A stretch of 52,317 nucleotides of DNA from positions 1 through 52,317 of the IMG/VR virus record IMGVR_UViG_3300036828_000027; one strand, 5' to 3'. The translations under genes and the position numbers were made by a program. Below the pieces are notes generated by a model that worked only from the letters and a program-made list of their open reading frames with translations, did no database searches and had not been told where the DNA came from. Origin of the DNA: a virus (taxonomy: Duplodnaviria; Caudoviricetes). This document shows positions 1 through 49,000 of the stretch, piece by piece (position 1 is the first letter of the stretch; the number at the start of each line of letters is the position of its first letter).

Positions 1-2373
1 CGTTGTTATTTCCTTTGGCCATTTGTACTGTACTCCGGCACGACGGGCCAGGAGGATATCTTTAGCCTTGCTGAGTCCGATACCTTTAATATTAGTAAGC
101 CCACCAAGGAACGCCCCGTCTGCATAACTCCAAGTAACACCACTCTTGTCTAAATCATATGGAGTAAATGGATAACCTGCCCTATCAAGTTCTCTCAAGT
201 AACGTTTGATAGGTTCCTCAAATGATAAGTTTCTAATATTAGCTAGAGCAAACTCAATAGGATAATGAGCCTTCAATACGCAGCAGAAATAAGACAACAT
301 ACCATAGGCTACTGCATGAGATTTATTGAATGCCCATGACCCCATCTTGTTAACACTATCCCATATCCTCCTGGCCGTGGTCTCATCTATGCCTTGTGAC
401 ATAGCACCTTCACGAAACCTCTGCCAGAAACGATCAAAGTATTCAATACCGAAAGACTTAGACATAGCCTTGCGTAATGTTGATGTATCCTCCCAAGATA
501 GTAGGCCAATCTCACGAACACAATTCATTACTTGTTCTTGATATACTATAACACCATATGTATCTTTGGTATAACGTTCCATAGATGGATGGACATATTG
601 CGCCTCTTGTTTACCCATACGTCTCTGAACCCACTCGTTACTGGCGCCAGAAGCGAATGGCCCTGGTCGAGCAAGAGCAGTAAGACAAGCTATATCATCG
701 AAACGATCTACAACTAGTCTCCTGGCGAGAGTTTGTAATGCTTGACCTTCAAACTGGAATATACCACAGAACTGAAACTTGCGCAATACTTCAAAAGCTT
801 TGTCATCATTTAGAGGATGCTTCAACAGATCACTATACTTCCAACCTATTGCCTCTAAACAATCAGCAATAATGGTTAGTGTCTTGAGACCTAATGCATC
901 TATCTTCATTAGATTGATTAGTTCGGCATCGTATTTATCAATATGAACTGTATTGGTTCTTACATCCTTAGCTACATAATTGATGAGAGGTTCATTGGTT
1001 ATAATGACACCAGCTGCATGCTTACCAGTAGTGTGTGCGTGGTTCTCTAGTTCTCCTGCAATAACCATAGCGGGATACTGTTCAATAAACCTTTGTCCTA
1101 TTTCTAGTTCTTTGAACGTATCAAGAATACATAGTCCTGCTCGTGAGTCTCCACTGCTCCTTTTGAGCATTGAGTCCTTTAGAGCAATAGTATCAGCATC
1201 AGGTATTCTTAATGCTTTGGCAGCCTCTCCAATAGCAGACTTGGGCTTATATCTTAGTATGGTCCCCAATCGCGCAACATTCTCACGACCATATTTATTT
1301 TGGATATAGTCAAATACCATTTCTCTTTTATTGTCTTGGAAATCAATGTCAATATCAGGCAAGTCATACCGAGTGATATCAATAAACCTCTCAAAAATAA
1401 GCCCATGAGGTAGAGGATCAATGTCAGTAATACCAAGCAAATAGCAGACAAGAGAACCGCAGGAAGAACCGCGAGCAGGGCCAACCACCATATTCTCTTT
1501 TGCATATCGCACCATATCTGTTATAACATAGAAGTAATCCTCATAGCCTTTGTCATTGATAAGTTTCAATTCATAGTCTAATCTGTCTTTGTATACTTGA
1601 TTGAGTTCTAATCCTCTACTCCTGGCGCCCACAAGACACATATCCAGTAATGTTGTTCCTGAACTATACTTGATGTTAGTTGCTGTTTGTATAGTAGCAT
1701 CACATTCTTCTGCGAGCCGGTCCGCCAGGAGGAAGGCTTCATCACTAATGTTCATTTCATTACGCAATCCCCACTCATCCATAATATACATAGGTGATGG
1801 TCGGTCGTTGCGAAACTTCCTGGCTAGTATTTGATATATTGAACGATCCTCAGCATTGATCATATAGTTATCAGATACAGCAACAACCTTTCCATCTCTT
1901 AGTAGCATACCTCGCGTAGAACTGTGCCCCTCCCGTAATACGCGCTGCCCGAGCTTAGGTCCATCTCCTAGTCCTGAACTTCCGCTGAGTATAATAACAT
2001 CTTTACTGAAATCATTTAATTTCAAGAATGGTAGACGCGGAACAAAATAAAAATTGCGAGTTGCTTCCTCCATAGCAGAATAGATTTCACGTAATCCAGA
2101 ATTGGTCTTTGCTATGATTGGTAACCAAAATATGTTTTGTCTCTTTTCACGAACATTGACATCTCTAACAAAAGCAAATTCACACCCAAACAATGGTTTA
2201 ATACCTGCATCTTTACAATACTTATTCCAAATAACATGGCCAAATGTTGAGTTGCGATCTGTTATTCCTGCGGATTGACATCCTAATTCTTTGAGTCTAT
2301 TCACCACCTTTTGAATAGGCCCATAAGCCCATCCGAAACTGTATTCGGTTCTTATTTTGAGTTGGGTATGCAT
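1..2373 (-). CDS. dnaE: DNA polymerase III alpha subunit (family C), N-terminal 791 codons; continues across the window junction
   Basis: Missing from the ORF track because it runs off the edge. Manual translation from ATG 2373: MHTQLKIRTEYSFGWAYG...GITDRNSTFGH (PHP), GPARGSSCGSLVCYLLGITDIDP, FERFIDITRYDLPDIDIDF, GKHAAGVII, KIDALGL, GIFQFEG, ALARPGP, TYGVIVYQEQVM, AFNKSHAVAY, IKGIG. Confidence 0.97.
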   Translation of the reverse strand, partial: MHTQLKIRTEYSFGWAYGPIQKVVNRLKELGCQSAGITDRNSTFGHVIWNKYCKDAGIKPLFGCEFAFVRDVNVREKRQNIFWLPIIAKTNSGLREIYSAMEEATRNFYFVPRLPFLKLNDFSKDVIILSGSSGLGDGPKLGQRVLREGHSSTRGMLLRDGKVVAVSDNYMINAEDRSIYQILARKFRNDRPSPMYIMDEWGLRNEMNISDEAFLLADRLAEECDATIQTATNIKYSSGTTLLDMCLVGARSRGLELNQVYKDRLDYELKLINDKGYEDYFYVITDMVRYAKENMVVGPARGSSCGSLVCYLLGITDIDPLPHGLIFERFIDITRYDLPDIDIDFQDNKREMVFDYIQNKYGRENVARLGTILRYKPKSAIGEAAKALRIPDADTIALKDSMLKRSSGDSRAGLCILDTFKELEIGQRFIEQYPAMVIAGELENHAHTTGKHAAGVIITNEPLINYVAKDVRTNTVHIDKYDAELINLMKIDALGLKTLTIIADCLEAIGWKYSDLLKHPLNDDKAFEVLRKFQFCGIFQFEGQALQTLARRLVVDRFDDIACLTALARPGPFASGASNEWVQRRMGKQEAQYVHPSMERYTKDTYGVIVYQEQVMNCVREIGLLSWEDTSTLRKAMSKSFGIEYFDRFWQRFREGAMSQGIDETTARRIWDSVNKMGSWAFNKSHAVAYGMLSYFCCVLKAHYPIEFALANIRNLSFEEPIKRYLRELDRAGYPFTPYDLDKSGVTWSYADGAFLGGLTNIKGIGLSKAKDILLARRAGVQYKWPKEITT

Positions 2374-6775: not shown

Positions 6776-7627
6776 TCAGAATGCTGGGATTTTATCACCA
6801 CCAAGATCATCTTGAGGCTGTTCCCAGTCAGTCTGCTGTTGAATATCTCCTTCCAAGAAATGTTCTTGTAGGAGAATAGCTTGCTTAAATATCTCTTCAC
6901 CATTCGGTAAATCTTGTGTTCTTACGTGCATATTCTTTTCATTTACATTCTTTACAATCTTTGGAGACCACCAAGATTGACCTTGAGTATTACGCAACAA
7001 GTCTAATGTCATCTTGTATGTGAAGTAATAGAATGGCGGAGTAATCGTCTGCCCATTACCCAACTTAATACGAGTTTGAGTAAGCATAGTTGACAAGAGA
7101 TTGGCGACGCGATTACCAGTGCTTCTCAAATTGAAGAAGCTAGGATCAGTCTCACCAGTCTTAGTGTTAACATCCAAGATAAGAAATGATCTCTGCTTAT
7201 CTATATAGTTGCCGTCTCTGGTAATTGGATTGAGAGCTTCACGTTGGGCAGGCTCACACAAAGCCTTCCAACCTTCATCAGTCCCCCAAATCTTTACCAT
7301 TCCGCTGCCAGGATTATTAGACACCCACTGTATAGTTTGTTTCTGGTGCCCAATAACGCATAGTATCAGTCCCTCCTGGCCAGGAGTCAATTTGTTACTG
7401 GAAGTATTGTAGAACATTCCCGCTTTGGCATTAGGAACATATTGCGGCCCACCTTCCTGGACCTCAGGGTTTAATTGTTGTAATACTTTGAGGCGAGGAA
7501 CAACGAGTTCATTGCGTTCAAACTTAGTATTCTTTTCGGCCAGCTTGGCCAGCATTTCTTCTTCTTGAGTAAGAGTTGTTGGAACTTGCTCAGAGGCGCT
7601 GTCTTGACGAACTACACGCTTTGCCAT
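6776..7627 (-). CDS. putative single-stranded DNA-binding protein
   Basis: VPRLKVLQQLNPEV...AKAGMFYN pattern, acidic tail ending DDLGGDKIPAF, replication context. Confidence 0.55.
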   Translation of the reverse strand: MAKRVVRQDSASEQVPTTLTQEEEMLAKLAEKNTKFERNELVVPRLKVLQQLNPEVQEGGPQYVPNAKAGMFYNTSSNKLTPGQEGLILCVIGHQKQTIQWVSNNPGSGMVKIWGTDEGWKALCEPAQREALNPITRDGNYIDKQRSFLILDVNTKTGETDPSFFNLRSTGNRVANLLSTMLTQTRIKLGNGQTITPPFYYFTYKMTLDLLRNTQGQSWWSPKIVKNVNEKNMHVRTQDLPNGEEIFKQAILLQEHFLEGDIQQQTDWEQPQDDLGGDKIPAF

Positions 7628-7638
7628 TTTGCTCTCCT

Positions 7639-8139
7639 TTACTCAATTACTGTTATGTTGTAGCGGTTAACATAGAAGATGTCTTCAGGTATCACCATGT
7701 TGTTACCTTCCATTTCTCTACCCCAAGCATTGAGTGTCTGCCAGTTAATGTCTTTCTTTACAAGGTATTGTACATGTAATTTGTCTAGTGTTGCTTTGAT
7801 CTCTGGTAGACGTTGATTTCCTTTGCCTAATGAAATATCAATCATAGTCTTAACCATACCGGCATGACCATGTTTCGTTAGCCATTCGTCAGCTAACTCC
7901 ATACGATCTTGTGGTGGTCGTTGTACTTGCATAACAGGCTTGACTGCAATAGTAAAGCCATTAGATAGTGCAAATTTATTGAGACCGATACCAGTCATCA
8001 ATACTGGAAGATCAATAGAGGATATTTGCTTGAATTGATCTTCCTTGACTTTTAGTTCTGTTCTTAGTGCTTCTATTGTTCTTTCAATCTTGACCATTTC
8101 TTCTGCAAGTTTTACTATGTTTTGTATAGTATCTGACAT
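7639..8139 (-). CDS. conserved phage replication-module protein
   Basis: Coiled-coil N-terminus and DLPVLM...WLTKHGHAGMVK...WQTLNAW pattern; AAGGAG RBS. Confidence 0.7.
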   Translation of the reverse strand: MSDTIQNIVKLAEEMVKIERTIEALRTELKVKEDQFKQISSIDLPVLMTGIGLNKFALSNGFTIAVKPVMQVQRPPQDRMELADEWLTKHGHAGMVKTMIDISLGKGNQRLPEIKATLDKLHVQYLVKKDINWQTLNAWGREMEGNNMVIPEDIFYVNRYNITVIE

Positions 8140-8247
8140 TATAACTCCTTACTGATTGAACATCTCCAAGTTACGGGAGACAGCCCCTGCCAGGACTGCC
8201 TCCCAAGGAACATACACGAGCACCGCTCGACCATCGAGCGAACCGCG

Positions 8248-8275
8248 ATTATAGCGGCTCGCGCGGGAAAGTAAA
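8248..8275 (-). promoter_or_regulatory. sigma70-type promoter
   Basis: TTTACT-N16-TATAAT, followed by two hairpins in the leader. Confidence 0.65.
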
Positions 8276-8300
8276 GCGGTGTTCTTTTATTCCATTGCTC

Positions 8301-9317
8301 CTATTCTTTGGGCACTGTGTAACCAATTCTACTAGACTTGAATTGATCACGCATCTCTGGAGTAGCCTTCACCAAAGTATCATTGATGAAAGTTCGTTCT
8401 CCAGTCTTATAGTTACGCCAATGCCCCATTCTAATATGCGCAACAGGACTAGCGTGATGTCCACCTTGACTAGTCTGTTTTTCATGTATAGTGCGAAGAA
8501 ACGTTGTTACATATTCTTCACTGCGCACCTTAGTATAAGGCGGTATCAGCGGTTTCTTATTCTTGATACGAGCACTATTAAGTTTGTCGGATGCTCGCAC
8601 TGTTTCTTTTGGAATGCCCCTAGTATTGAGCATCAATAGAGCAACCATTATTGGCTCCATTACATTTGATGCCGCTGATTCTAACGCAGCTTGTGGCCCT
8701 TTTGGAAGCCCAGTTTCTTCAGCATAACGATCCCAGAAACTTTGCGGGAAACGAAACTGAACTGGCACTACCTGGCAAGCAAACGCTCTATTTGGCTCCA
8801 ATTCTTCTTTAGATAAAAGCCTTGCTCTATCTCCTACACCTAGCATATTGATATCTTTTACTTTGAAAGGTTCAATAGATGAAATCTCAAAGTCACAACC
8901 AATAGCCTTACCGTCTACTGGATATGGATTAACCAAATATACAGAACAAGAATCAGCTTCACAACCGAACTTCTCGCTCAGTACTTGGTCGCTCCAAGTA
9001 TGATAGAATATCCAAGGTGTAGTAAACGGATGACCTAGTGCATTTTCAAGATATAGTTTAATTGCTCTAGTACTTTGTTTCTTGATAAATTCATTAGGCC
9101 AGTAACCAAAGTCAAAGAACTTACCTGCCTTTACTGCTTCTTTAAGCATATCCACAATAGTGTCTAACTCTTCTGGAGAGGGCATGAAGTCCGTTTCAAG
9201 TCCTGGCCCTGAACTTAGCATACCAGCCAATACTAGATCACGAAACCTAGCTGGAGTAATACCGGTGATTTTTATGTCATCAGTATTAGTCTCAAATATT
9301 CTATTCTTGTCCATCAT
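8301..9317 (-). CDS. early protein with a C-terminal SPxxHxRxGHWR motif
   Basis: HASPVAHIRMGHWR; start placed at the ATG after the repeated leader. Confidence 0.8.
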   Translation of the reverse strand: MMDKNRIFETNTDDIKITGITPARFRDLVLAGMLSSGPGLETDFMPSPEELDTIVDMLKEAVKAGKFFDFGYWPNEFIKKQSTRAIKLYLENALGHPFTTPWIFYHTWSDQVLSEKFGCEADSCSVYLVNPYPVDGKAIGCDFEISSIEPFKVKDINMLGVGDRARLLSKEELEPNRAFACQVVPVQFRFPQSFWDRYAEETGLPKGPQAALESAASNVMEPIMVALLMLNTRGIPKETVRASDKLNSARIKNKKPLIPPYTKVRSEEYVTTFLRTIHEKQTSQGGHHASPVAHIRMGHWRNYKTGERTFINDTLVKATPEMRDQFKSSRIGYTVPKE

Positions 9318-9357
9318 TCCATTCCTTTCTAGACCCAGCAACAGTGCTGGTGGAATA
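9318..9357 (-). repeat. early-gene leader repeat, copy A
   Basis: TATTCCACCAGCACTGTTGCTGGGTCTAGAAAGGAATGGA-ATG. Confidence 0.9.
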
Positions 9358-9416
9358 TACGAACGTATATACGTCGCGTATATACGTATATACGAACGTA
9401 TATTCCATCAATACTG

Positions 9417-9725
9417 CTAATCCATTCTGGATACCTCCCAAGTTCCATCTTTTTGTTTTATCATTACCCAATCATGTTCATATAATGTTATTTCTTCATC
9501 ACGCAAATATGTTCTAAATATAGGTAGCATTGGTGGATCGCCTGGATACTTTAATCTGTCTCCTGCTATTAATTTATGACCTTGAAATGGACTCCAGCCG
9601 CCAAATATATAATTTTGTTGAAATTGTTCTTTGGCCGGCCTAGGATCATCTTCAGATATAAATTGTGGTATATACCCAAGCATCTCAGGTCTAGCTTGTG
9701 GATGCAAAGCAACCCAGATCATCAT
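9417..9725 (-). CDS. hypothetical early protein
   Basis: Coupled ORF; KYPGDPPMLP motif. Confidence 0.75.
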   Translation of the reverse strand: MMIWVALHPQARPEMLGYIPQFISEDDPRPAKEQFQQNYIFGGWSPFQGHKLIAGDRLKYPGDPPMLPIFRTYLRDEEITLYEHDWVMIKQKDGTWEVSRMD

Positions 9726-9914
9726 TCACTCCTGAACGTTATAGGTCAATTTGGCAGTATAGTTTGTCACCACCCAACCTCTTACTTGAGTATAACAATA
9801 CTTGCCACACTCAGGGCAATAATTGGGCATCCTAGGATTAACCCAACAAAGCAATGTCCCGCAACACCCAGTATGTATCAAACGAAACGGAACATATTGT
9901 GTTTCTTTAGGCAT
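9726..9914 (-). CDS. small Zn-ribbon protein
   Basis: CCGTLLC...YCPECG; start refined to MPKETQ. Confidence 0.65.
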   Translation of the reverse strand: MPKETQYVPFRLIHTGCCGTLLCWVNPRMPNYCPECGKYCYTQVRGWVVTNYTAKLTYNVQE

Positions 9915-10149
9915 CTTTGTACCCCAGTCTACCGCCAACAAGATGAGCAATATCAGCGATTTTGTAACGCCAACGCTCGCCAGTAGAAGTATACTTGCCA
10001 ACTTTGACAAGCATTAATCCACCAGGCATTACAACAATATCTGGAGGTGAATCTTTACGCCAAACTAGACCATTCAACTCTAGATCATGTATTGGGAATG
10101 TGCCTTGTGACATAGTTCCCTCAACTATGAGAGTGAACTTCTCTTCCAT
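9907..10149 (-). CDS. hypothetical early protein
   Basis: ATG follows a partial leader repeat, GTCTAGAAAGGACAGGAACA. Confidence 0.7.
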   Translation of the reverse strand: MEEKFTLIVEGTMSQGTFPIHDLELNGLVWRKDSPPDIVVMPGGLMLVKVGKYTSTGERWRYKIADIAHLVGGRLGYKDA

Positions 10150-10221
10150 TGTTCCTGTCCTTTCTAGACTACACCCATAATCGGGCAAAGCGCGGCCAGG
10201 AGTTACTGGCCGCAAATGCTT

Positions 10222-10392
10222 CTATAGTGAAGGTCTGTGTAGTTGATCGTTTATAACTGTAATTTCATCCAAGTCTAATTTCGTGATCTTGTGTTCTAAT
10301 TCCTTGACTCGTTTCTCTAGCTCCTTGAGTCTTTGTTCCGCTTTCTTCAACTTATCTGTTAGAGTTGGCGGTTTCCTTGGTGGTTTCTTCAT
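10222..10392 (-). CDS. small basic coiled-coil protein (56 aa)
   Basis: Manual translation MKKPPRKPPTLTDKLKKAEQRLKELEKRVKELEHK...; below the ORF-track cutoff. Confidence 0.6.
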   Translation of the reverse strand: MKKPPRKPPTLTDKLKKAEQRLKELEKRVKELEHKITKLDLDEITVINDQLHRPSL

Positions 10393-10404
10393 TCTTAATG
10401 CTTC

Positions 10405-10602
10405 CTATCTTAGTTGATCACTATGAGAAACGACCCAATCACATAGCTCTCTTATACTGAGAAAGCTAGGGGATATACTCAATTTACCTTTCTTGGCGGC
10501 ATATTGAGTAGTTCCACTCGCCAGGAACGATTGTATTCTACAATCATTCTCTCTCAATATTCGTTCTGCTAAGTCAATAGGGTTTACTTCATTACTATCC
10601 AT
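10405..10602 (-). CDS. hypothetical early protein
   Basis: ATG follows leader copy B. Confidence 0.7.
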   Translation of the reverse strand: MDSNEVNPIDLAERILRENDCRIQSFLASGTTQYAAKKGKLSISPSFLSIRELCDWVVSHSDQLR

Positions 10603-10645
10603 TGTTCCATTCCTTTCTAGACCCAGCAACAGTGCTGGCGGAATA
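10603..10645 (-). repeat. early-gene leader repeat, copy B
   Basis: TATTCCGCCAGCACTGTTGCTGGGTCTAGAAAGGAATGGAACA-ATG. Confidence 0.9.
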
Positions 10646-10688
10646 GGCTACCAGGTTGTTACTCCTGGCGCCCATTCCGTAAGAACTG

Positions 10689-11114
10689 CTACGTTACATT
10701 ATAGTCAAGTAACAATCGCATTAGCGACTTAGCCTGTTCAATAGGTAGCGTTGCATTGAATTGAATTTGAGCAGTATTGTTATTCAGTATCTTGAAGAAC
10801 AGAGGATCAGATTTGACTTGCATTGGTTTAGTCTTACTTGGACTATACTTGACAATTGCTGTTTTTGGATTACGAGGCAACGTTGTCGCTTCCTTTGGCA
10901 TCCACGCTTCTTCAGTAGTGCCAAAGACTTGGGATAGTTTCTTGCGATACTGTTCTGTTGGTACTCCAGTAGCCTTCAACCAAGGATATGCAGTGGTTCT
11001 ATTCCTTGGTATTCCTAGCAATTCATTCAAATCACTCATACCAATTTGGCGTTCGCTCATTTTACTTCGCAGTAATGAAGCAATATGAGCATTCTCTGGT
11101 TTTACTTTTGCCAT
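10689..11114 (-). CDS. XRE/Cro-like helix-turn-helix regulator
   Basis: LLRSKMSERQIGMSDLNELLGI...AYPWLKATGVPTEQYRKKLSQVFG. Confidence 0.7.
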   Translation of the reverse strand: MAKVKPENAHIASLLRSKMSERQIGMSDLNELLGIPRNRTTAYPWLKATGVPTEQYRKKLSQVFGTTEEAWMPKEATTLPRNPKTAIVKYSPSKTKPMQVKSDPLFFKILNNNTAQIQFNATLPIEQAKSLMRLLLDYNVT

Positions 11115-11115
11115 A

Positions 11116-11391
11116 TCAAGCTACCTTGCCTTTGACAAGTCTGAAGCGACTCACCACAGGAGTTTCACTCTTTTGTACAAGAGTATACCAAGCATCGCGA
11201 TAGGCAACAGTTATAGTTTTGAAACCATAACTATGTTGATCACCACGTTTACTTGTCCAGCACCAACCAGTCAGCATACGCAACTCACCTTTACCTCGAT
11301 GATCATTCCATCGTTTTGTTTCTGCTACGTTGATGTAGTAGATACGTGCAACTGCATCTACTTCAGCAACTATATTTGCAGGTAACCACAT
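11116..11391 (-). CDS. hypothetical early protein
   Basis: Follows leader copy C; start refined to MWLPAN. Confidence 0.65.
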   Translation of the reverse strand: MWLPANIVAEVDAVARIYYINVAETKRWNDHRGKGELRMLTGWCWTSKRGDQHSYGFKTITVAYRDAWYTLVQKSETPVVSRFRLVKGKVA

Positions 11392-11406
11392 TCCATTGCT
11401 CCTTTT

Positions 11407-11441
11407 ATTCCTTTCTAGACCCAGCACATCGCTGGCGGATA
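11407..11441 (-). repeat. early-gene leader repeat, copy C
   Basis: TATCCGCCAGCGATGTGCTGGGTCTAGAAAGGAAT. Confidence 0.9.
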
Positions 11442-11540
11442 GGCGGCCAGAAGTATACCTCCTGGCGCCCATCCGTCAACCTTGCCTCCAGACTAGCCAC
11501 AGTATTATTAAAGCAATTCCTAGTAGAGCGACCCAGTTTA

Positions 11541-11759
11541 TCACAGTTCATTCTCGTCAGCAATTGTATAAGCATCAGGGTGTATAGCGAAAGGTTCCAA
11601 ACCTTGAGACTCTCGGTTTAGATTGATGATGGTCATACAATTCTCGCACACTGGTTCTTTTTGGCCAGTAACGACTGTTGTTGACGGAACGTGTACTGGA
11701 TTAAAAGCAAACCGCTGATTACAGCAGATGCAGTAACCCATACAGAACACATAACCCAT
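11541..11759 (-). CDS. small Cys-rich (Zn-binding) protein
   Basis: CICC...PVCENC; AAGGGA RBS and its own promoter. Confidence 0.7.
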   Translation of the reverse strand: MGYVFCMGYCICCNQRFAFNPVHVPSTTVVTGQKEPVCENCMTIINLNRESQGLEPFAIHPDAYTIADENEL

Positions 11760-11782
11760 TTTCGTTTCCCTTCTATACCGAT

Positions 11783-11811
11783 AGTATAACGCGATTATCG
11801 GTCGCAGTCTA
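11783..11811 (-). promoter_or_regulatory. sigma70-type promoter
   Basis: TAGACT-N17-TATACT. Confidence 0.65.
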
Positions 11812-11867
11812 GTTTGGTTATTCAAACAGTATTATACTGATCCCGGAACATTGTGTTCGTGATGTGA

Positions 11868-12047
11868 TTACTCATCATCATCTATCGGCTCATCATGCTC
11901 ATAGTTCGGATCAGTAAATATTTCTGGGCGATACCTGGCTTTCTTTGTATTCTCGCACTCAGGGCAAGAATAATATACAAAGATACCACGAGCGTCGTAA
12001 TGTGGCTGTTTATACAAACCAGAGCCACAATTACATTTACGTTCCAT
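11868..12047 (-). CDS. small Zn-ribbon protein
   Basis: CNCGSG...YDARGI...CPEC; follows leader copy D. Confidence 0.75.
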   Translation of the reverse strand: MERKCNCGSGLYKQPHYDARGIFVYYSCPECENTKKARYRPEIFTDPNYEHDEPIDDDE

Positions 12048-12089
12048 TGTTCCATTCCTTTCTAAGTCCAGCACATCGCTGGCGGAATA
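12048..12089 (-). repeat. early-gene leader repeat, copy D
   Basis: TATTCCGCCAGCGATGTGCTGGACTTAGAAAGGAATGGAACA-ATG. Confidence 0.9.
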
Positions 12090-12134
12090 GGCGTATATAC
12101 GTTTATATATACGCCCATTCCGTTAGCCTTGCTG

Positions 12135-12410
12135 TTAGGCATCCTGTATATCAGTAGAGTTGGCCAGATAGTTAGCCACTCTTGTGGCAACATCACCGCG
12201 ATGTTCAACACCGCCATGGATAAGATACTCCACAGCATCGTCCTCATTTTCTTCCATGATGATGATGTAGTAAAGCTTGTTGTTCTTGTTAGGTGACAAA
12301 TCAAACGTCATCCTAGCAAGAGATATGGCATCATCCAGTGATCCGGTCCAGCCCCAATTATCTTGGTCCTCTGGCGGATAGTCACTGATGAATTCAGTGA
12401 TCCTGTACAT
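12135..12410 (-). CDS. acidic hypothetical early protein
   Basis: ATG follows a partial leader, TCTAGAAAGGATGGAACA. Confidence 0.7.
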   Translation of the reverse strand: MYRITEFISDYPPEDQDNWGWTGSLDDAISLARMTFDLSPNKNNKLYYIIIMEENEDDAVEYLIHGGVEHRGDVATRVANYLANSTDIQDA

Positions 12411-12546
12411 TGTTCCATCCTTTCTAGATCGTGCTTCCCTCTGCATTAGGGGCTGGGAACCCGGTATATACTTGCGTATATACGCTGCATTAAAGCACGG
12501 CACGCCAGAAGGTTATTGTTCTCCTGGCGCGCTATGCGTAGGCAAG

Positions 12547-13041
12547 TTAGACAGTAGCTGTAGTAGCAGTTGCCTCTGTGGAAACAGAGGCCACCTTAGC
12601 CTCACGTGCCTTCGCACGTTTGGCCTTCGCTTTCGCGGCAACTTCCTCTTCTGAGAGCCAACGAAAGTCAGTCACAGGCATCCGCTTGGTTGGCCGGTTC
12701 CAGTTGAGGTTAGTCTCAGGCTTATTCTGAGCCTGCTTCTCAACCAGTATCTTTTTGGCCAAGTTAGCCTCACGCCGCGTCTTGTGAGCGGAATGAAGGC
12801 TAATCGAATGGCCATCAGAACCATACTTGCGGATGGACTCCAAAATTGGCGAATTGTAGGCACCAAAATTGACATCCTTTGCGCAAGCGAGTAGGCCAGT
12901 CGCGAAAGCCTTGGGCGACACGCTCCTCACCGAAACAAACCTGCCGCCTGTCTTCAGGCAGCGAACGATGAGGATGCAGTAATCGAGGCCATCATCGAAA
13001 GCCTTGATAGCTGCGGTGTTCGTGTTGTCGAGGTTTTGCAT
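12547..13041 (-). CDS. first early gene; degenerate GIY-YIG-like fold with a Lys/Ala-rich tail
   Basis: YCILIVRCLKTGGRFVS...ILESIRKYG...EAN...NLN; GGAAGGTG RBS. Confidence 0.6.
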   Translation of the reverse strand: MQNLDNTNTAAIKAFDDGLDYCILIVRCLKTGGRFVSVRSVSPKAFATGLLACAKDVNFGAYNSPILESIRKYGSDGHSISLHSAHKTRREANLAKKILVEKQAQNKPETNLNWNRPTKRMPVTDFRWLSEEEVAAKAKAKRAKAREAKVASVSTEATATTATV

Positions 13042-13791
13042 TGTAAGTCACCTTCCTAGGTTTGGGTCTGCATTTTGGTTCTCTGGGCTTCCCACCAGCG
13101 CGTATATACGAATGCATATACGTGGCTGCATTAAACAGGCTGCGTAATCCCGCCGAATGGCTACGCGCAGCGCTGCCCCTAGAAAGGAACAACGGACATA
13201 TCCTCCCCGTTTGCTGTTTTGCCAGCGTATATACGATCGTATATACGCCAGGTATTCAGACTTGGGAGGATTAGACCTGATTAACTATATATCCTACTGA
13301 CGTAGACGCGTGCGCGTCCTGGGGCTGTAGCCGCGTATTCCCGCTCTAATGAGCTATGCGCGGCCGTGCGAGCCACTCCAGGGGCTTCGTCTATGCTTTC
13401 GTATATACCGCTTCAAAGAGAGCGGAAAATGGGACAAATCGGCCTGACGCGACCTAACTAGCTGGTCTGAGCTGGCGGGTAACTCCATTCTGTTGTCGTA
13501 ACAACATACTATTCCCGCGCCAGGCAACCTTGATGGTCGCCTGCCCTTATCGCTTCCCTGACTACCCCGGCGGAACCGCTAGAAAGCGGTCCCTATGGGC
13601 GCCTAGGCTCTAGCGCCTAGCCTAGTGGCCTCCCCTACGGGGAGGTGTCCTAGGCGACGCTAGGGACGCGCTAGACGTGGCCTAGATGGCCCGTCCGAGC
13701 GTCCGAGGTGTCCTTATTCTCCTGTCAAACAGCGCGGGGAAATTCGTTTCGGCTCCGATCGGGTTCCCCTCTAGACCACCGATCTAGGTCT

Positions 13792-13820
13792 AGTCTAGCC
13801 TATCCTGGCACGGAAGTAAA
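13792..13820 (-). promoter_or_regulatory. sigma70-type promoter (leftward)
   Basis: TTTACT-N17-TAGACT. Confidence 0.55.
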
Positions 13821-13867
13821 GCCCAGCCGGGAACCAACAGTCTTATTTTTTAGACGGCCCAGGCAAA

Positions 13868-13885
13868 GCTCCTGGCGCCAGGAGC
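13868..13885. repeat. perfect 18-bp palindrome made of two genome-wide motif half-sites
   Basis: GCTCCTGGCGCCAGGAGC. Confidence 0.95.
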
Positions 13886-14278
13886 GGATTAGACCTGCCC
13901 CTAGAATGGCCTAGGATGCATCCTAGGGTGGCCGCTAGTCCTGGACGCTCCTACCCTAGCGCCCAAAACCACGTTCGCGTTTGTTCCCTTCTTGTTCCCG
14001 CAACGTTCTCATCAATGATTTCAATGACTTACGGGGCATGAACGGTTAAAATCTGTTAATATGTTTCGTTGGTTACTGGTCGGTAGTTCTGGTTATGTTC
14101 TGGTCACCTAGCCAAAATGGATTTGATCGGAGCCTGGAAAGCAATCAAATACGATCGTATATACGAGCGTATATACGCTGATGATTGCTTGATATATACG
14201 TCAGTCAGTCCTGACAATTCAATAGATAGACGTATATACCAGAATTGTTCCGATTGCATATCTTCTTGAAATGCCAAC

Positions 14279-14307
14279 TAGACGCGGGCACGGATCTAGG
14301 CTAGGCT
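14279..14307 (+). promoter_or_regulatory. sigma70-type promoter (rightward)
   Basis: TAGACG-N17-TAGGCT upstream of ATG 14376. Confidence 0.55.
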
Positions 14308-14375
14308 AACGGTGAGATCGGAACTGCCAATACGATCTCATAACGTTCATTGAATCGGTGTATAAGGAACATAAG

Positions 14376-15324: not shown

Positions 15325-15360
15325 ATACTCCTGGCGCTAGTTGTGAGGCGCCAGGAGTAT
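15325..15360. terminator. 13-bp-stem hairpin built from two motif copies (terminator or binding site)
   Basis: ATACTCCTGGCGC-N10-GCGCCAGGAGTAT just after the stop codon; weak U-tract. Confidence 0.5.
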
Positions 15361-21221: not shown

Positions 21222-21677
21222 ATGTTTGAAAAGCAGTTAGCAAAAGACTTCAACGATATGTTTAAGGAGTATCAAGTATGGACACTCAGTAATCGCACGG
21301 CTGGCTGGCCAGATAAAGGAGTTCAAATCAACAATTCAAGAATGGTATGGTTTGAACTCAAAGTTATAGAGTATAGATTTGGAGCCACATTCTTCAAAGT
21401 AACAGAGCTAACGGCAGACCAAGCAGCATGGTTAGCTAAGTGGCAAAGATCAGGAGGCTTCTGTTTTCTGTTTCTTGGCTTTGTAGACTATAAGCACCAA
21501 CTAACAAAGTATGGAATATTGCGTTGTAGTAATTGGGATACATGGTTGAATGTACCCAAACACTCGATGAGAGTTGAGCAATTAGTGCAATTCACAGAGG
21601 ATAAGTATGAGATATACAAATGGTTTAGAGATTTGTTCATACCACAGGCCACTAGATCAAACAAAAAATCAGCGTAG
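21222..21677 (+). CDS. VRR-NUC/PD-(D/E)xK nuclease (resolvase-like)
   Basis: GWPD...WFELK...LTADQAAWL...GG. Confidence 0.85.
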   Translation: MFEKQLAKDFNDMFKEYQVWTLSNRTAGWPDKGVQINNSRMVWFELKVIEYRFGATFFKVTELTADQAAWLAKWQRSGGFCFLFLGFVDYKHQLTKYGILRCSNWDTWLNVPKHSMRVEQLVQFTEDKYEIYKWFRDLFIPQATRSNKKSA

Positions 21678-21823
21678 ATACTAGCGTATATACGATGATT
21701 AGTTTCGTTAGAAACGATACTAACAAAAGAGAACGACATAAGAACGATAACTTTATCGCGTGCCGAAACGATTACCTATTTACTTACGAAATGATTTGGT
21801 ATATACGCGATGATGAGACTAAA

Positions 21824-28992: not shown

Positions 28993-29538
28993 ATGCCGAC
29001 ATCTACACCTGCTTTGATTGTTACTGGTATTGGTAGTGGTGGACCTGACAATAGTTTGCCTGGAACTCCGCCTGGTATTTGGGGTGGTGGGTCGCCTCCT
29101 ATGATTGATAATACTTTGCCGCCACCTCCAGGCATTTGGCCGCCTCCAGTAGAGATTTGGCCGCCAGTTGCTTTGCCGCCGGATTATCCAATGCCACCTG
29201 GTAGCATTTGGCCTCCAGTAGTTGGTCATCCTTTGCCACCAGTTCCTGGTCGTCCAGATCAAGGTTTGCCACCCGCTCCTGGTCGTCCAGATCAGGGATT
29301 GCCGCCTGCTCCTGGTCGTCCAGGTCAGGGCTTGCCAAGTCAGAAATACTTGGTTGCCATTGTTGCGGCAAGTGCTGCTGGTGGACTTAAAGTAATTGGC
29401 TATACTGTAGTAGACCCAAGCCTTGATGTTGGGATGCCTTTGCCTCCTGGCGTTACTCATCCTATCGCTCCTGGCGGTGGTGGTTCTCCTACTCAGCCAA
29501 TTGATCCGGGCGGACAGCCTACGCCGACACGTCGCTAA
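28993..29538 (+). CDS. proline-rich repetitive protein
   Basis: IWPP x3, PGRP(D/G)QGLP x3; AAGGA RBS. Confidence 0.75.
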   Translation: MPTSTPALIVTGIGSGGPDNSLPGTPPGIWGGGSPPMIDNTLPPPPGIWPPPVEIWPPVALPPDYPMPPGSIWPPVVGHPLPPVPGRPDQGLPPAPGRPDQGLPPAPGRPGQGLPSQKYLVAIVAASAAGGLKVIGYTVVDPSLDVGMPLPPGVTHPIAPGGGGSPTQPIDPGGQPTPTRR

Positions 29539-36134: not shown

Positions 36135-36319
36135 GTATTCTGCGAGATGATTTTGCTGAAGAACTAGTAATATGGAGGCCAATAATGGAGGGATTGGTAA
36201 CATTAGCAGAAGTAAAAGCAGGAGATGCTGATATAATAGACTTGTTAAAACTAAATGCATTGCTTGATATGAAAGCTGCACTAGAACAAAGAGCTAATGC
36301 TAATGCGCCAGGAGCATAA
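36074..36319 (+). CDS. -1 frame extension of the tail chaperone (GT-like)
   Basis: The -1 frame is open from 36074 to TAA 36317-36319: ...EELVIWRPIMEGLVTLAEVKAGDADIIDLLKLNALLD. Confidence 0.65.
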   Translation, partial: TFYARQNPYWTGPREYGSPLGILRDDFAEELVIWRPIMEGLVTLAEVKAGDADIIDLLKLNALLDMKAALEQRANANAPGA

Positions 36320-39365: not shown

Positions 39366-40347
39366 TAGAACGTATAGGTTATTGGTGGGTAAGAAAGGTC
39401 AATCTCAAGGTGTAGAGATTACTGACTCTTTGCGTATTCAATTTGATATTGAAAAGACTGCCAAGAAAAATCCTAACAAGAGCACTATTAAAGTATACAA
39501 TTTGAGGAAAGAAACAAGAGCAGAGTTTGAAAAGCCTGATACTAGAGTTGTGTTATATGCTGGATACAAGGACGAAGCAGGAGCAATATTAATCTTTCAA
39601 GGTAGTGTAAGTTATGCGTGGTCAAGAAAAGATGGACCTGATCTTATTACGGAATTTGAACTTGGAGATGGTGCTACAGAAATACGTGATACGACAATAT
39701 CAGTTGGCTACGGTAAAGGTATTAAATCAACTCAAGTTCTCAATGATGTCTCCAAACAGATGGGGCTGCCGTTAACTTTGCCCAATAATGCTCCAACTAG
39801 AGTTTGGAATAATGGCCTGTCGTTTCATGGTCCTGCTAGAACATTATTAGATAAGGTTACTAAAGGAACCAATCTAGAATGGTCTATACAGAATGGAAAC
39901 TTACAGGTCATAGAGAATGGTATGGTAACAACTAGACAAGGGATATTGATATCACAGAGTAGTGGTATGATTGGTTCTCCTGAAAGAGAACGATTGGCCA
40001 AAGCGCATACGCATGCTAAAGATAAAGGCAAGACTGTCGGACAGCCAATCATAGAACCTGATTATGATGGCTGGAAAGTAAAGTCATTGCTTATGCCTAC
40101 ACTTAATCCTGGTGATAGAATTCAACTAGAGGCACTATTTGTAACTGGGATTTACAGAATAGAAGAAATCAAACACCAAGGAGATAGTGATGCCACTGGC
40201 GATTGGCAATCAGAATTGCGCGTTGTCGATCCTAGAAAGCCAATAAAGGATACTAAAGGTGCTACTCAAAAAGGAACAGTAAGTGATGATTCTATTACTG
40301 AGGATGATTTGATAGACGCTGGAGGAATGCTCTATGTTGCGGCTTAA
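39337..40347 (+). CDS. baseplate hub protein
   Basis: [32 protein letters not shown]. Confidence 0.85.
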
Positions 40348-48641: not shown

Positions 48642-49000
48642 GCTATATAATTGAAGATGCTGGGCAACATGAAGACAAAGTTATAGACACTGGACATTGC
48701 GTTCGTTTCTTACAAGAAATAGGCAATCTACCACACACATCTCAATGGAAGCGAGGTATGAAAGCCAAGAGTGCAATTATACCTAATGGAACTTGTATAG
48801 CTACATTCTCTCCTGGCGGAGAATACGAGAACAATATTGACGGATCAAGTCATGCTGCAGTATATGTAGGTCAAACTCCTGAAGGTCTTATTGTATATGA
48901 TCAATGGCAAGGACATCCAGTATCAATAAGAACAATATGGTTTCGTAATGGCAAAGGTAAAGCTGTTAATGATGGTGATCAATACTATGTAATTGACTAG
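48638..49000 (+). CDS. peptidoglycan amidase of the Tae2/BPSL0067-like NlpC/P60 family; probable endolysin
   Basis: GHCV (Cys), TSQWKRG, GTCIATF, SHAAVY (His), VYDQW. Confidence 0.75.
   Translation: MSYIIEDAGQHEDKVIDTGHCVRFLQEIGNLPHTSQWKRGMKAKSAIIPNGTCIATFSPGGEYENNIDGSSHAAVYVGQTPEGLIVYDQWQGHPVSIRTIWFRNGKGKAVNDGDQYYVID

Follow-up and report, generated by a model that had tools for sequence, protein, structure and literature searches.

Interchangeable RNA modules with a common ribosome-binding leader precede the shuffled genes of a soil phage array

We analyzed a 52,317-nt stretch of DNA (the window; IMG/VR record IMGVR_UViG_3300036828_000027) from a soil phage, in which every gene of a leftward array lies on the minus strand. 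Gene g0 (12547-13041, 164 aa) is conserved at the array head in four of four genomes. It is followed by genes A (12135-12410; 91 aa, without a family), B (11868-12047; 59 aa, with a CxxC...CxxC pattern), B2 (11541-11759; 72 aa, Cys-rich), C (11116-11391; 91 aa), C2 (10689-11114; 141 aa, with a weak HTH-antitoxin PHROG match, E 0.0046), D (10405-10602; 65 aa), and D2 (10222-10392; 56 aa, coiled coil). Next come E (9907-10149), E2 (9726-9914), and E3 (9417-9725), which overlap or abut with no module between them (9417-10149), and finally F (8301-9317; 338 aa). C and C2 (10689-11391) are neighbors wherever present among the genomes compared, and B2, which has no leader in the window, follows one in the relative L017. 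The first-pass annotation had called the array genes unrelated, and BLASTP among the 12 proteins found no pair at E below 0.5. Gene F bears a precomputed Pfam label for the AcrVA2-like family (PF26125), as do 30 of its 32 other matches; the family name comes from the Atlas (score 0.98), and neither a PDB sequence search nor a local Pfam copy gave a match. Judged by this label, gene F, which is present in four of four genomes but at a different location in L018, looks like an anti-CRISPR gene, in keeping with the anti-defense cargo proposed on first pass.

A near-identical leader, UCUAGAAAGGAAUGGAACA-AUGG, precedes six of the minus-strand genes, whose start codons, with frames checked, lie at 9317, 10149, 10602, 11391, 12047, and 12410. 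The leader is an invariant, unpaired stretch of 19-23 nt in which an 8-nt spacer separates an extended Shine-Dalgarno sequence (AGAAAGGA) from AUGG. Six genes behind a common leader had been reported before, and the repeats are indeed far above chance: TCTAGAAAGGA is exact at 9323-9333, 10158-10168, 10611-10621, 11409-11419, and 12418-12428, its eight matches at up to one mismatch compare with 0.8 expected (reached by 0 of 100 shuffles), and a 22-mer leader at up to three mismatches has four matches vs. 0.00 expected. The earlier start positions were within a few bases, except in copy C, where the start was placed at 11407 and lies 16 nt further downstream, at 11391; this copy has an insertion, with AAUAAAAGGAGCAAUGGA preceding the AUG. 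Leader A (12411-12428) reads UCUAGAAAGGAUGGAACA, and the sixth copy (12048-12066) reads CTTAGAAAGGA. The idea that the repeat is an expression joint agrees with its ending in a ribosome-binding leader directly 5′ of each start codon. The array extends beyond the interval first annotated (8301-12546), as a seventh, weaker leader copy of the type CCTAGGAAGG (13042-13059; CCUAGGAAGGUGACUUACA) lies with a twister-type element upstream of g0; at the homologous position, L017 has CTAGAAAGG. Fifteen IMG/VR contigs carry the leader, and the elements 5′ of it are twister ribozymes, covarying type III hammerheads, or a double hairpin, the last in 30 distinct copies.

Units B, C, D, and F are covarying double hairpins in which a long stem (P1) is abutted by a short one (P2) and followed by the leader. 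P2 corresponds to CCAGC-N(5-6)-GCTGG, which occurs exactly four times (9335-9350, 10623-10638, 11421-11435, and 12068-12082; 0.09 expected), matching the four hairpins of variable interior noted on first pass. The upstream ACGGA(A)TGGGCG, reported in three copies, was found in units B, C, and D. It forms the 5′ strand of the long stem, whose 3′ strand, CGCCTAT(T)CCG, lies directly 5′ of CCAGC; this role had been overlooked, as had the occurrence of the same stem in unit F, kept there through compensatory changes of its base pairs (ATGGAATATACG ... CGTATATTCCA). Unit B (12048-12122; P1 12083-12122, P2 12068-12082, leader 12048-12066) has a TATATA palindrome at the P1 apex, scores 91.2 bits with our double-hairpin model R1, and folds with z −6.73, leaving the leader unpaired. 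Unit C (11392-11475; P1 11436-11475, P2 11421-11435, leader with insertion 11392-11419) gives 76.3 bits and z −4.09. Unit D (10603-10679; P1 10639-10679, P2 10623-10638, leader 10603-10621) is the copy nearest the consensus, with 102.2 bits and z −4.83. Unit F (9318-9407; P1 9351-9407, P2 9335-9350, leader 9318-9333) gives 66.9 bits and z −6.26, and its P1 apex holds three exact CGTATATACG palindromes between two one-mismatch copies. Unit E (10150-10222) has the same layout in a different sequence, with a long hairpin (10187-10222), an abutting short hairpin (10173-10186), and a leader (10150-10168; UCUAGAAAGGACAGGAACA); it scores 30.2 bits with z −2.71, and L007 has a unit resembling it.

A covariance check, suggested on first pass, came out positive. 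We aligned 19 units, drawn from the window and from nine loci on eight contigs, with MAFFT: of 408 cells, 92.4% are paired, and 9 of 22 pairs show compensatory change, values reached by 0 of 500 shuffles; slid controls were at most 46% paired. For units B, C, D, and F, RNAfold returns P1 plus P2 as the minimum free energy (MFE) structure, and the leader stays open (z −4.1 to −6.7). At two positions G-U is the most frequent pair, with 14 of 19 units in each case, and R1 matches on the reverse strand reach at most 27 bits vs. 67-102 bits in the sense direction; the double hairpin is therefore selected as sense-strand RNA. It lacks a conserved unpaired core, and Rfam yielded nothing for it at E up to 10.

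Sequence and pseudoknot identify unit A (12428-12498) as a P1-open twister ribozyme. Rfam model RF03160 matches it full length (12433-12496) with E 4.8e-07, although the 42.6 bits fall short of the 67.2-bit gathering score; its MFE fold holds P1, P2, P3, and P4 (z −4.98), with P3 made of two GTATATAC palindromes. Upstream of g0, 13060-13139 is, by sequence, a second P1-open twister candidate, in which the P4 loop triplet has traded places with its 3′ partner (GGG...CCC for CCC...GGG) and P3 contains a CGTATATACG-type palindrome pair; the Rfam search at E up to 10 did not report it, and its MFE fold does not stand out from shuffles (z −0.32). All 16 P1-type units of the family, both window copies included, have a complementary pseudoknot triplet (nine combinations) and a paired P2 (four combinations). 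From what we take to be the cut position in twisters, cleavage is predicted between 12492 and 12491 in unit A and between 13133 and 13132 in the g0 element. Just 5′ of unit A, the fold shows a G+C-rich hairpin with a GCGCCAGGAG arm (12500-12532), likely the 3′-end hairpin of the g0 message once cleaved; similar hairpins stand ahead of twisters and hammerheads in relatives.

Among the relatives, 12 Twister-P5 matches above the Rfam gathering score lie directly 5′ of leaders. Eight type III hammerhead units have 100% of 104 cells paired, compensatory change in 11 of 13 pairs, and invariant C(U/C)GAUGA and GAAA cores. Gene A follows a twister in the window and a hammerhead in L019, and gene D follows a double hairpin in the window and a hammerhead in L019; the module slot is interchangeable among the three element types in relatives. 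RNA processing, which the first-pass annotation had raised only as a side remark, proved its best-supported part, with one twister inside its interval, one just outside, and twisters and hammerheads in the same slot in relatives.

Neither gene order nor gene content is fixed among relatives: four genomes with common flanking genes (the window and three relatives) have four different orders. We read block ends by eye from HSPs of at least 200 nt in the two nearest relatives, and 11 of 20 lie at a module edge (9342, 10169, 10598/10684, 12067, and 11392). The earlier expectation that breakpoints fall in the repeats held for these, but about 9 of 20 lie within genes or at junctions without a module, and the module-less junctions D|D2, E2|E3, F|next gene, and B|B2 are also broken in relatives. 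The best match of a window unit is often at a nonorthologous place in a relative; in L017, for example, the unit that matches unit D at 91% identity over 88 nt stands ahead of another gene, E. Other soil contigs share solely 10598-10680 and 11409-11485, diverging at both edges. Near-identical relatives (99%) are collinear, and we saw no same-strain deletion or circle joint in these data, which are contigs only. The genome, rated 94% complete, yielded no tyrosine or serine recombinase, integrase, or resolvase, in agreement with the remark that no integrase was visible. The integron-like reading offered alongside did not survive, and membership was rejected, because no such recombinase was found and the hairpins behave as sense-strand RNA.

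Some units also show signals at the DNA level: unit C has a promoter-like site, and units A, B, and F have operator-like palindromes. The site in unit C (TTGACG-16-TATACT, 11452-11479) is the top promoter-like match of the array at 10 of 12 positions. Another promoter-like sequence, TAGACT-17-TATACT (11783-11811, minus strand), lies within the array 3′ of gene B, and the block containing it is also found 3′ of gene B in L017 and L018. Pairs of CGTATATACG palindromes occur in units B and F, at the apex, and also in the noncoding control region.

Overall, we consider it reasonably probable that these are natural modules, each an insulator plus a standard ribosome-binding site, that process a polycistronic early RNA and double as recombination joints. 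The early leftward region would be one operon divided into cassettes by a composite RNA module. Its first part, a structured element (a twister twice, a long P1 abutted by a short P2 five times), would set RNA ends, and its second would be the fixed, unpaired translation leader. The element would isolate the downstream cistron from upstream sequence, leaving upstream RNA to end in a G+C-rich hairpin and downstream RNA to begin with a compact fold and then the standard ribosome-binding site; because the module would separate cistrons, each cargo gene could be expressed independently of its neighbors. Cleavage of the double hairpin would most likely fall to a host double-strand-specific RNase, RNase III; we found no RNase III gene in the phage. 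Homologous recombination between modules, within a genome or between coinfecting relatives, may gain, lose, and reorder cassettes, because the modules (80-110 nt) are the sole sequence common to unrelated cassettes. Counting against this reading, both window twisters fall below the Rfam gathering threshold, the double hairpin might insulate without being cleaved or might serve to bind a protein, 99% relatives are collinear, module-less junctions are broken, and the phage has no detectable RecT or YqaJ recombination genes.

We weighed three other readings. The double hairpin may stay uncleaved and act solely as an intercistronic terminator or attenuator, an RNA stabilizer, or a site for a coregulating phage or host protein. 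Its CGGAA/UUCCG and CCAGC/GCUGG stems are conserved beyond what pairing needs, and it lacks a conserved unpaired core. However, none of 11 terminator-like sites lies within a unit, and neither P1 nor P2 is followed by a U tract. In 86% of cells, the leader Shine-Dalgarno has its complement in the 3′ strand of P1, but this pairing does not covary (229 of 500 shuffles equal it). The promoter-like match in unit C is set against a regional count not above shuffles (17 vs. 11.7 ± 3.5). With self-cleaving ribozymes in the slot elsewhere, we regard an uncleaved hairpin as unlikely. The same exchange with twisters and hammerheads ahead of homologous genes, together with covariation lacking any Rfam match and an invariant U at −3 and A at −1 before P1, would fit a new class of small self-cleaving ribozyme; twister-sister, pistol, and hatchet were found as unexplained conserved structures at sites of known ribozymes. 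To our knowledge, all known small ribozymes have about ten conserved unpaired nucleotides. The conserved positions here are nearly all Watson-Crick paired, which counts against a new ribozyme, and the P1 bulge is not conserved in sequence and is absent from unit B; we find this reading very improbable.

Finally, the hairpins could act as DNA, either as operator palindromes or as cruciform or single-strand recombination sites that serve a site-specific system, integron-like or otherwise, with the RNA folds incidental. The attC-like layout between cassettes (conserved inverted ends, variable centers of 18-70 nt), the palindrome pairs shared by the apex of B and F with the control region, and the shuffled gene order all point that way. 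Against it stand the missing tyrosine or serine recombinase, G-U pairs that become A-C mismatches on the opposite strand, the strand specificity of the model scores, and ribozymes, which act only as RNA, in the same position, so we hold a DNA-level role to be improbable.

Turning to known systems, we compared the array with T7 early RNA, in which RNase III cuts intercistronic hairpins that the upstream message then keeps at its 3′ end; Bacillus phage SP82 has similar sites, and in both these are repeated, similar, irregular hairpins of about 16-30 bp between early cistrons. The array has similar repeated hairpins, but each P1 is here abutted by another hairpin and followed by a fixed leader, and true ribozymes alternate with them. 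As in integron arrays, imperfect palindromes, conserved at their ends and variable in the center, stand between small, unrelated, promoterless genes. Unlike in integrons, no integrase was found, each palindrome lies 5′ of its gene fused to a ribosome-binding site, and selection on the structure acts on the RNA-sense strand.

Operons of phages and prophages in which clustered self-cleaving ribozymes flank genes were reportedly described by Weinberg et al. in 2015. In an earlier study, clustered hammerheads in prophages flank single genes or short gene blocks, one set flanking the anti-restriction gene ardA, and cleave polycistronic constructs of ∼2 kb in vitro; processing of a long phage transcript was proposed there (Perreault et al. 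2011, PMC3088659). The common ground with those clusters is several ribozymes between genes of varying identity on one strand, with two twisters in the window and twisters and hammerheads in relatives. In contrast to those clusters, all window modules end in a single invariant leader, the covarying double hairpin or its look-alike stands in place of a known ribozyme in five of the seven, and modules coincide with rearrangement breakpoints among relatives. Six of eight aligned hammerheads of relatives have U-U at 10.1-11.1, a mispair rejected by that study's filter (PMC3088659). In T4-type phages, recombination between promoter-early stem-loop (PeSL) repeats explains indels and replacements (PMC2839356, PMC4122927). 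In both systems, short composite regulatory repeats lie in a plastic region, among early genes that are small and mostly ORFans, but PeSL combines a sigma-70 promoter and a terminator, whereas window units have no common promoter or U-tract terminator and look like RNA-processing or translation modules (PMC2839356, PMC4122927). The module order ribozyme, hairpin, ribosome-binding site is that of RiboJ, in which cleavage strips upstream context and leaves a uniform 5′ end (PMC6206723). RiboJ was engineered from a plant satellite hammerhead (PMC6206723), whereas the window modules are natural and stand as seven copies in one operon, each with a twister or a nonribozyme hairpin.

The early-gene array occupies 8301-13041 on the minus strand, in the left arm of a genome represented by a single 52,317-nt contig that makes up the whole virus record (CheckV completeness 94%). 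On the same arm and strand lie a DNA polymerase gene (1-2373), genes for an exonuclease subunit and a thymidylate synthase-like protein, and two genes resembling gp33 and gp34 of Pam3 (6776-8139), and a long rightward arm runs on the plus strand from 14358. Near the right end, the minus strand carries an SNF2-family helicase gene (48997-50463), which probably means that the record is circularly permuted and that the gene forms part of the leftward replication arm. The DNA polymerase shares 38-42% identity with its counterparts in phages infecting Ralstonia, Cronobacter, Vibrio, and enterobacteria, and a Firmicute host, guessed from the long Shine-Dalgarno, was dropped because these nearest phages infect Proteobacteria. 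A blastn search of phage records gave no match between the array DNA and any deposited phage, and neither a tRNA nor an Rfam family at gathering score was found in the whole window. Collagen-like GGN-CCN repeats (41020-41338, within a 695-aa ORF at 40334-42421) and proline-rich 33-nt repeats (29121-29337) probably belong to fibre or structural proteins.

The first-pass annotation had described repeats made of a hairpin and a ribosome-binding leader in this array, and both parts were found as described. The leader core TCTAGAAAGGA occurs exactly five times, with CTTAGAAAGGA as the sixth copy (8 matches at ≤1 mismatch vs. 0.8 expected), and the 22-nt leader was matched four times vs. 0.00 expected. 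Every copy is on the minus strand, directly 5' of the starts at 9317, 10149, 10602, 11391, 12047, and 12410, and the twelve proteins of the array are mutually unrelated. The hairpin CCAGC-N5-6-GCTGG is confined to the four places where it had been noted (0.09 expected). In every RNAfold fold of the window units, the leader is single stranded; its stretch UAGAAAGGA complements the UCCUUUCUA-type 3' tail found on the 16S rRNA of many bacteria, a tail that the host may share. An 18-mer of the leader was found at 16 IMG/VR loci on 15 contigs, with up to 8 copies per contig; at L009 and L012, it is not followed by a start codon. When the loci and the window were scanned loosely, 96 distinct units with a leader were obtained, a few of them false matches. 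The leader had no match in one genome each of 185,579 prokaryote species and therefore gives no prophage or host clue.

Four of the RNA modules that carry this leader, units B, C, D, and F (named after the genes that they precede), share one build on the minus strand, in which a long helix, P1, is abutted by a short hairpin, P2. The 5' strand of P1 is ACGGAAUGGGCG, the 3' strand CGCCUAUUCCG closes it, and the apex between them is variable, being either a G+C-rich hairpin with a GCGCCAGGAG arm or the CGTATATACG palindrome set. Counted from the folds, P1 comprises 16-17 base pairs in C and D and 18-22 in B and F, and in C, D, and F the helix is interrupted by one or two unpaired bases; in unit F, it is kept through compensatory changes. 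P2 is a 5-6 bp hairpin of the form CCAGC(R)-loop-(U)GCUGG that follows P1 without a spacer, and the leader begins one or two bases later. The minimum-free-energy fold of each of these four units consists of P1 and P2 with the leader open (z from -4.1 to -6.7; 0 of 200 shuffles equal). Unit E has the same layout of a long hairpin abutting a short one in a different sequence.

We aligned 19 of 31 double-hairpin rows, those with short apices, using MAFFT (five long-apex units and seven noncanonical rows were left out). Across the 19 units, 92.4% of 408 cells were paired and 9 of 22 pairs had changed on both sides; none of 500 shuffles matched either value, and sliding the partner strand lowered pairing to at most 46%. 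A covariance model, one of the checks proposed together with the repeats, was built from this alignment and run on 23 sources. It recovered 30 distinct copies scoring ≥45 bits, spread over the window and ten other contigs (collapsed by hand from 35 rows that included duplicate loci), with four strong copies in the window, all within the array. Matches on the opposite strand reached at most 27 bits, and at two positions G-U outnumbers every other pair; these strand-specific scores and G-U pairs point to a double hairpin that works as a sense-strand RNA. At E values up to 10, the double hairpin matched no Rfam family, units B-F giving only chance matches to microRNA hairpins. The P1/P2 junction pattern was found in 113 stretches in a viral scan, with a leader-like motif downstream in 3 of 112 loci, 2 of them real; the remaining matches are due to chance and were excluded from later analyses. 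A metagenome scan for P2 plus leader returned just 6 loci. Ribozyme-directed searches of open-access text found no paper on the leader or the double hairpin.

Two other elements of the array resemble twister ribozymes. Unit A (12428-12498) aligned over the full length of Rfam RF03160 (clan CL00120) with 42.6 bits (E = 4.8e-07), below an unusually high gathering score of 67.2 bits. A second twister-type element (13060-13139, minus), which Rfam did not report, lies upstream of g0 (12547-13041), the first gene, with a variant of the leader in between; its P4-loop triplet and 3' partner are swapped (GGG with CCC). We compared 16 P1-type units of 20 rows; the excluded rows were a near-duplicate and three that represent two P5-type units. 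The pseudoknot triplet (P4 loop with the 3' GAGGG-type segment) is complementary in all 16, in 9 combinations, and P2 is paired in all 16, in 4 combinations. When P1 is read in one fixed register, at least three of its four pairs form in only 6 of the 16 units, and the register differs among units. Since the triplet and P2 complementarity behave as expected of a twister pseudoknot, this covariation is good evidence for reading unit A and the g0 element as putative twisters. Twisters self-cleave at a U-A step 5' of P2, which would place the cuts at about 12492/12491 in unit A and 13133/13132 in the g0 element. The relatives hold 12 Twister-P5 ribozymes above the Rfam gathering score, immediately 5' of leaders. 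Natural twisters tolerate structural imperfections, according to a high-throughput study (PMC11662667).

The relatives also carry a second ribozyme fold. Eight of their units, and none in the window, fold as type III hammerheads with three stems around the cores (among them L004 6816-6871 and 8870-8928, L018 5610-5693, and L019 3880-3938); a ninth unit labelled hammerhead has a type I layout (L006 889-963) and was left out of the alignment. All 104 cells are paired in the eight units, 11 of 13 pairs show compensatory change, and the C(U/C)GAUGA and GAAA cores and the GUA cleavage triplet are invariant. Rfam RF00008 nevertheless scored these units at just 12.4 bits vs. a gathering score of 48.5, probably due to position 10.1-11.1, which is U-U rather than a standard pair in six units and G-C in two. 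Perreault et al. rejected hammerhead matches with such a mispair unless activity had been measured (PMC3088659). The ribozyme slot before the leader is filled in some relatives by another unmatched element, absent from the window, in which a long hairpin GGAGGGAUGUAGUAUUG..CUACAUCUCCC is followed by UGGAGAUCA (L019 5514-5592; L014 1137-1220 and 203-305). This element is a candidate processing motif.

Across genomes, homologous genes are preceded by differing elements. Gene A follows a twister in the window and L017 and a hammerhead in L019; gene D follows a double hairpin in the window and L018 and a hammerhead in L019; gene B follows a double hairpin in three genomes and another unmatched hairpin in L019. 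The double hairpin precedes gene F in all four genomes. Because the three elements are interchangeable before one invariant leader and homologous genes, we argue that twister, hammerhead, and double hairpin share one job, defining the ends of single-gene messages and standardising translation.

The position of the GCGCCAGGAG-type hairpin suggests how the double hairpin might be processed. In ribozyme units, this hairpin always lies just 5' of the predicted cleavage site, and in P5-type twisters, it is stem P1 itself; the upstream fragment of a cleaved unit would thus end in it. In the double hairpin, it forms the apex of P1. Since it precedes the cleavage site in ribozymes, the double hairpin would, by analogy, be cut either on P1's 3' side or where P1 meets P2, leaving P2 and the leader as a standard 5' end. 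A double-strand-specific RNase would act at the corresponding place in T7-type sites. No RNase III gene was found in the phage genome. We hold with moderate confidence the overall mechanism, in which the modules would process a polycistronic early RNA, standardise translation, and act as joints for cassette exchange. In an anti-Shine-Dalgarno switch, the 3' strand of P1 would instead pair with the leader, to which it is complementary, yet this complementarity comes without covariation and the switch was rejected. We also set aside an RNase P or HK022 put-like reading of the double hairpin: the CCA after P1 covaries within P2 (CUAGC/GCUAG in one unit), and the several double-hairpin copies per operon disfavour it further. 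It is unlikely that the double hairpin and at least two other unmatched slot elements are new RNA-processing motifs, whether as new kinds of self-cleaving ribozyme or as targets of a dedicated nuclease, within a natural plug-and-play system; there, any processing element joined to one standard leader would let phages swap anti-defence genes by recombination.

Two DNA motifs recur both within and beyond the modules. The 10-mer GCGCCAGGAG occurs 48 times at ≤1 mismatch in the whole window (1.2 expected), for example at 1619-1628 (minus), 13869-13884, 15328-15357, and 36305-36314, and also serves as a hairpin arm in the modules. Genes contain such sites in each of the three frames, and 31 of the 48 point in the direction of transcription. 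A role as a general extended ribosome-binding site was rejected, with 11 of 48 sites before a start codon and 6.75 ± 2.4 at random positions; it may be a Chi-like motif or a DNA motif bound by a protein. The palindrome CGTATATACG has 48 matches at ≤1 mismatch vs. 11.3 expected and forms pairs 12-13 bp apart (9353-9405, 12092-12113, 12463-12484, 13101-13122, 13226-13247, 14156-14177, 14192-14240, and 21673-21694). These pairs cluster in the early control region and also occur in tolerant RNA apices (P3 of both twisters and the apex of units B and F), as they do in relatives. They look like an operator set for a regulator, for which g0 and C2 are candidates.

The 1.3 kb between the divergent arms (13042-14357) is without long ORFs, has a G+C content of 52.6% vs. 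about 41% elsewhere, and is rich in short CTAG-containing repeats; positions 13869-13884 form a perfect 16-bp palindrome, CTCCTGGCGCCAGGAG. The stretch might be an origin or a control region, or it might encode a noncoding RNA; the matching region of L017 and L018 holds ORFs of 249-262 aa and 168-171 aa. A divergent plus-strand element at 13128-13200 (..AATCCCGCC..GCTACG..) matches no Rfam family and is followed by a leader, CCTAGAAAGGAACA. The next codon is ATG in six relatives (CTAGAAAGGAACAATGGA..) and ACG in the window, and a small divergent gene may have been lost or may be differently started in this genome. Beyond the other end of the array (8140-8300, minus), the gp33-like gene is preceded by a promoter-like TTTACT-16-TATAAT (8248-8275) and then a structured leader of ∼110 nt. 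The sequence of this site and leader is conserved in all four genomes, and the leader is a possible regulatory 5' UTR.

The array itself is shuffled among relatives. L017, L018, and L019 share the flanks of the window: g0 at one end of the array and, at the opposite end, the gp33-like gene (63-79% protein identity). Between these flanking genes, the order is A, B, B2, C, C2, D, D2, E, E2, E3, F in the window; n1, A, B2, B, C, C2, D2, E, E2, n2, F, n3 in L017; n4, B2, F, B, D, n5, D2-like, E3, E, E2, n3 in L018; and A, n6, E3, n7, n8, B, n9, n10, n11, D, C, C2, D2, F, n12, E2 in L019, where n1-n12 are genes missing from the window. The repeats had been proposed as recombination joints at which the breakpoints of relatives should fall. 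The four differing orders and the many block ends at modules support this in part, but junctions without modules are broken as well. The homology block of E3 and its downstream hairpin ends at 9342, within P2; that of E begins at 10169, the first base of the leader; those of A and B2 end at 12067 and 11392. Unit D (10598-10684) is 91% identical to an L017 unit that precedes another gene, and the flanks are unrelated. Among matches of ≥200 nt to L017 and L018, read by eye, roughly 11 of 20 block ends coincide with a module edge in one or the other genome; the remaining 9 or so fade within genes or sit at junctions without a module. Such junctions (B with B2, D with D2, E2 with E3, and F with the next gene) are likewise broken in relatives, and just the C-C2 and E-E2 adjacencies are kept throughout. 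Contigs 99% identical to each other are collinear. A search of sequencing runs gave two soil DNA runs and no RNA run. Contigs from the two soil runs share only the units at 10598-10680 and 11409-11485 and diverge at both edges. They break at repeats, with the listed joints coming from diverged relatives, and no same-strain deletion or circle joint was found among them. These contigs are not independent evidence, since one run may derive from the source sample itself and the remaining contigs probably represent the same relatives. Because many block ends coincide with module edges, yet junctions without modules are broken too, the modules are frequent but not exclusive joints in a region that is plastic as a whole.

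The precomputed Pfam label of gene F is PF26125, shared by 30 of 32 other matches; the Atlas names this family AcrVA2-like (score 0.98), making gene F a candidate member. No PDB sequence matched gene F. AcrVA2 is described as an anti-CRISPR that lowers Cas12a mRNA (bioRxiv 10.1101/2022.11.29.518452). The other 11 of the 12 cassette proteins had no informative Pfam or PHROGs match, and the Atlas returned nothing for g0.

The role of self-cleaving ribozymes in bacteria and phages is described as open, and a 2019 review notes that their purpose needs additional work (PMC6765202). The ribozyme-slot family offers a clean, testable case for phage ribozymes. It ties the proposed job of the modules to genome evolution, with modules at sites of cassette exchange and one cassette labelled as an anti-CRISPR family member, and its layout corresponds, in a natural system, to the ribozyme insulators designed in synthetic biology; the unmatched slot elements are candidates for new processing motifs. 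Three features are new: a leader that stays fixed, a single slot in which twister, hammerhead, and an unclassified covarying double hairpin replace one another freely, and the tie between modules and cassette shuffling.

Several known systems invite comparison. The integron-like layout suggested by the first-pass annotation did not hold: PF00589 had no match in the 52,317-nt genome (94% complete), the control having matched 14 of 14 genomes, and the resolvase family PF00239 had none in the whole window genome. With no tyrosine or serine recombinase, the array is not an integron. Integron attC sites act as a folded bottom strand 3' of the gene; the window does have palindromes with conserved ends, although their G-U pairs and strand-specific scores suggest the sense RNA strand. 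PeSLs are marked by a strong sigma-70 promoter in each repeat and an intrinsic terminator. Here, a promoter-like site was found in unit C only (10/12), the 17 promoter-like sites of the region were not above shuffles (11.7 ± 3.5), none of 11 terminator-like sites lay in a unit, and no T run follows P1/P2. Repeat-bounded indels and replacements do occur between relatives, at module-less junctions as well. Lacking a common promoter and a U-tract terminator, the units are not PeSLs in composition; they are alike in evolution and unlike in composition (PMC2839356, PMC4122927). P1, as read from the folds, has the form of a T7-type RNase III site, an irregular intercistronic hairpin of about two helical turns. 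Clustered ribozymes flanking phage genes are already known, and processing of polycistronic RNA has been proposed for them (PMC3088659; PMC6765202); one published set of three hammerheads flanks the anti-restriction gene ardA (PMC3088659), a suggestive parallel to the gene F cassette.
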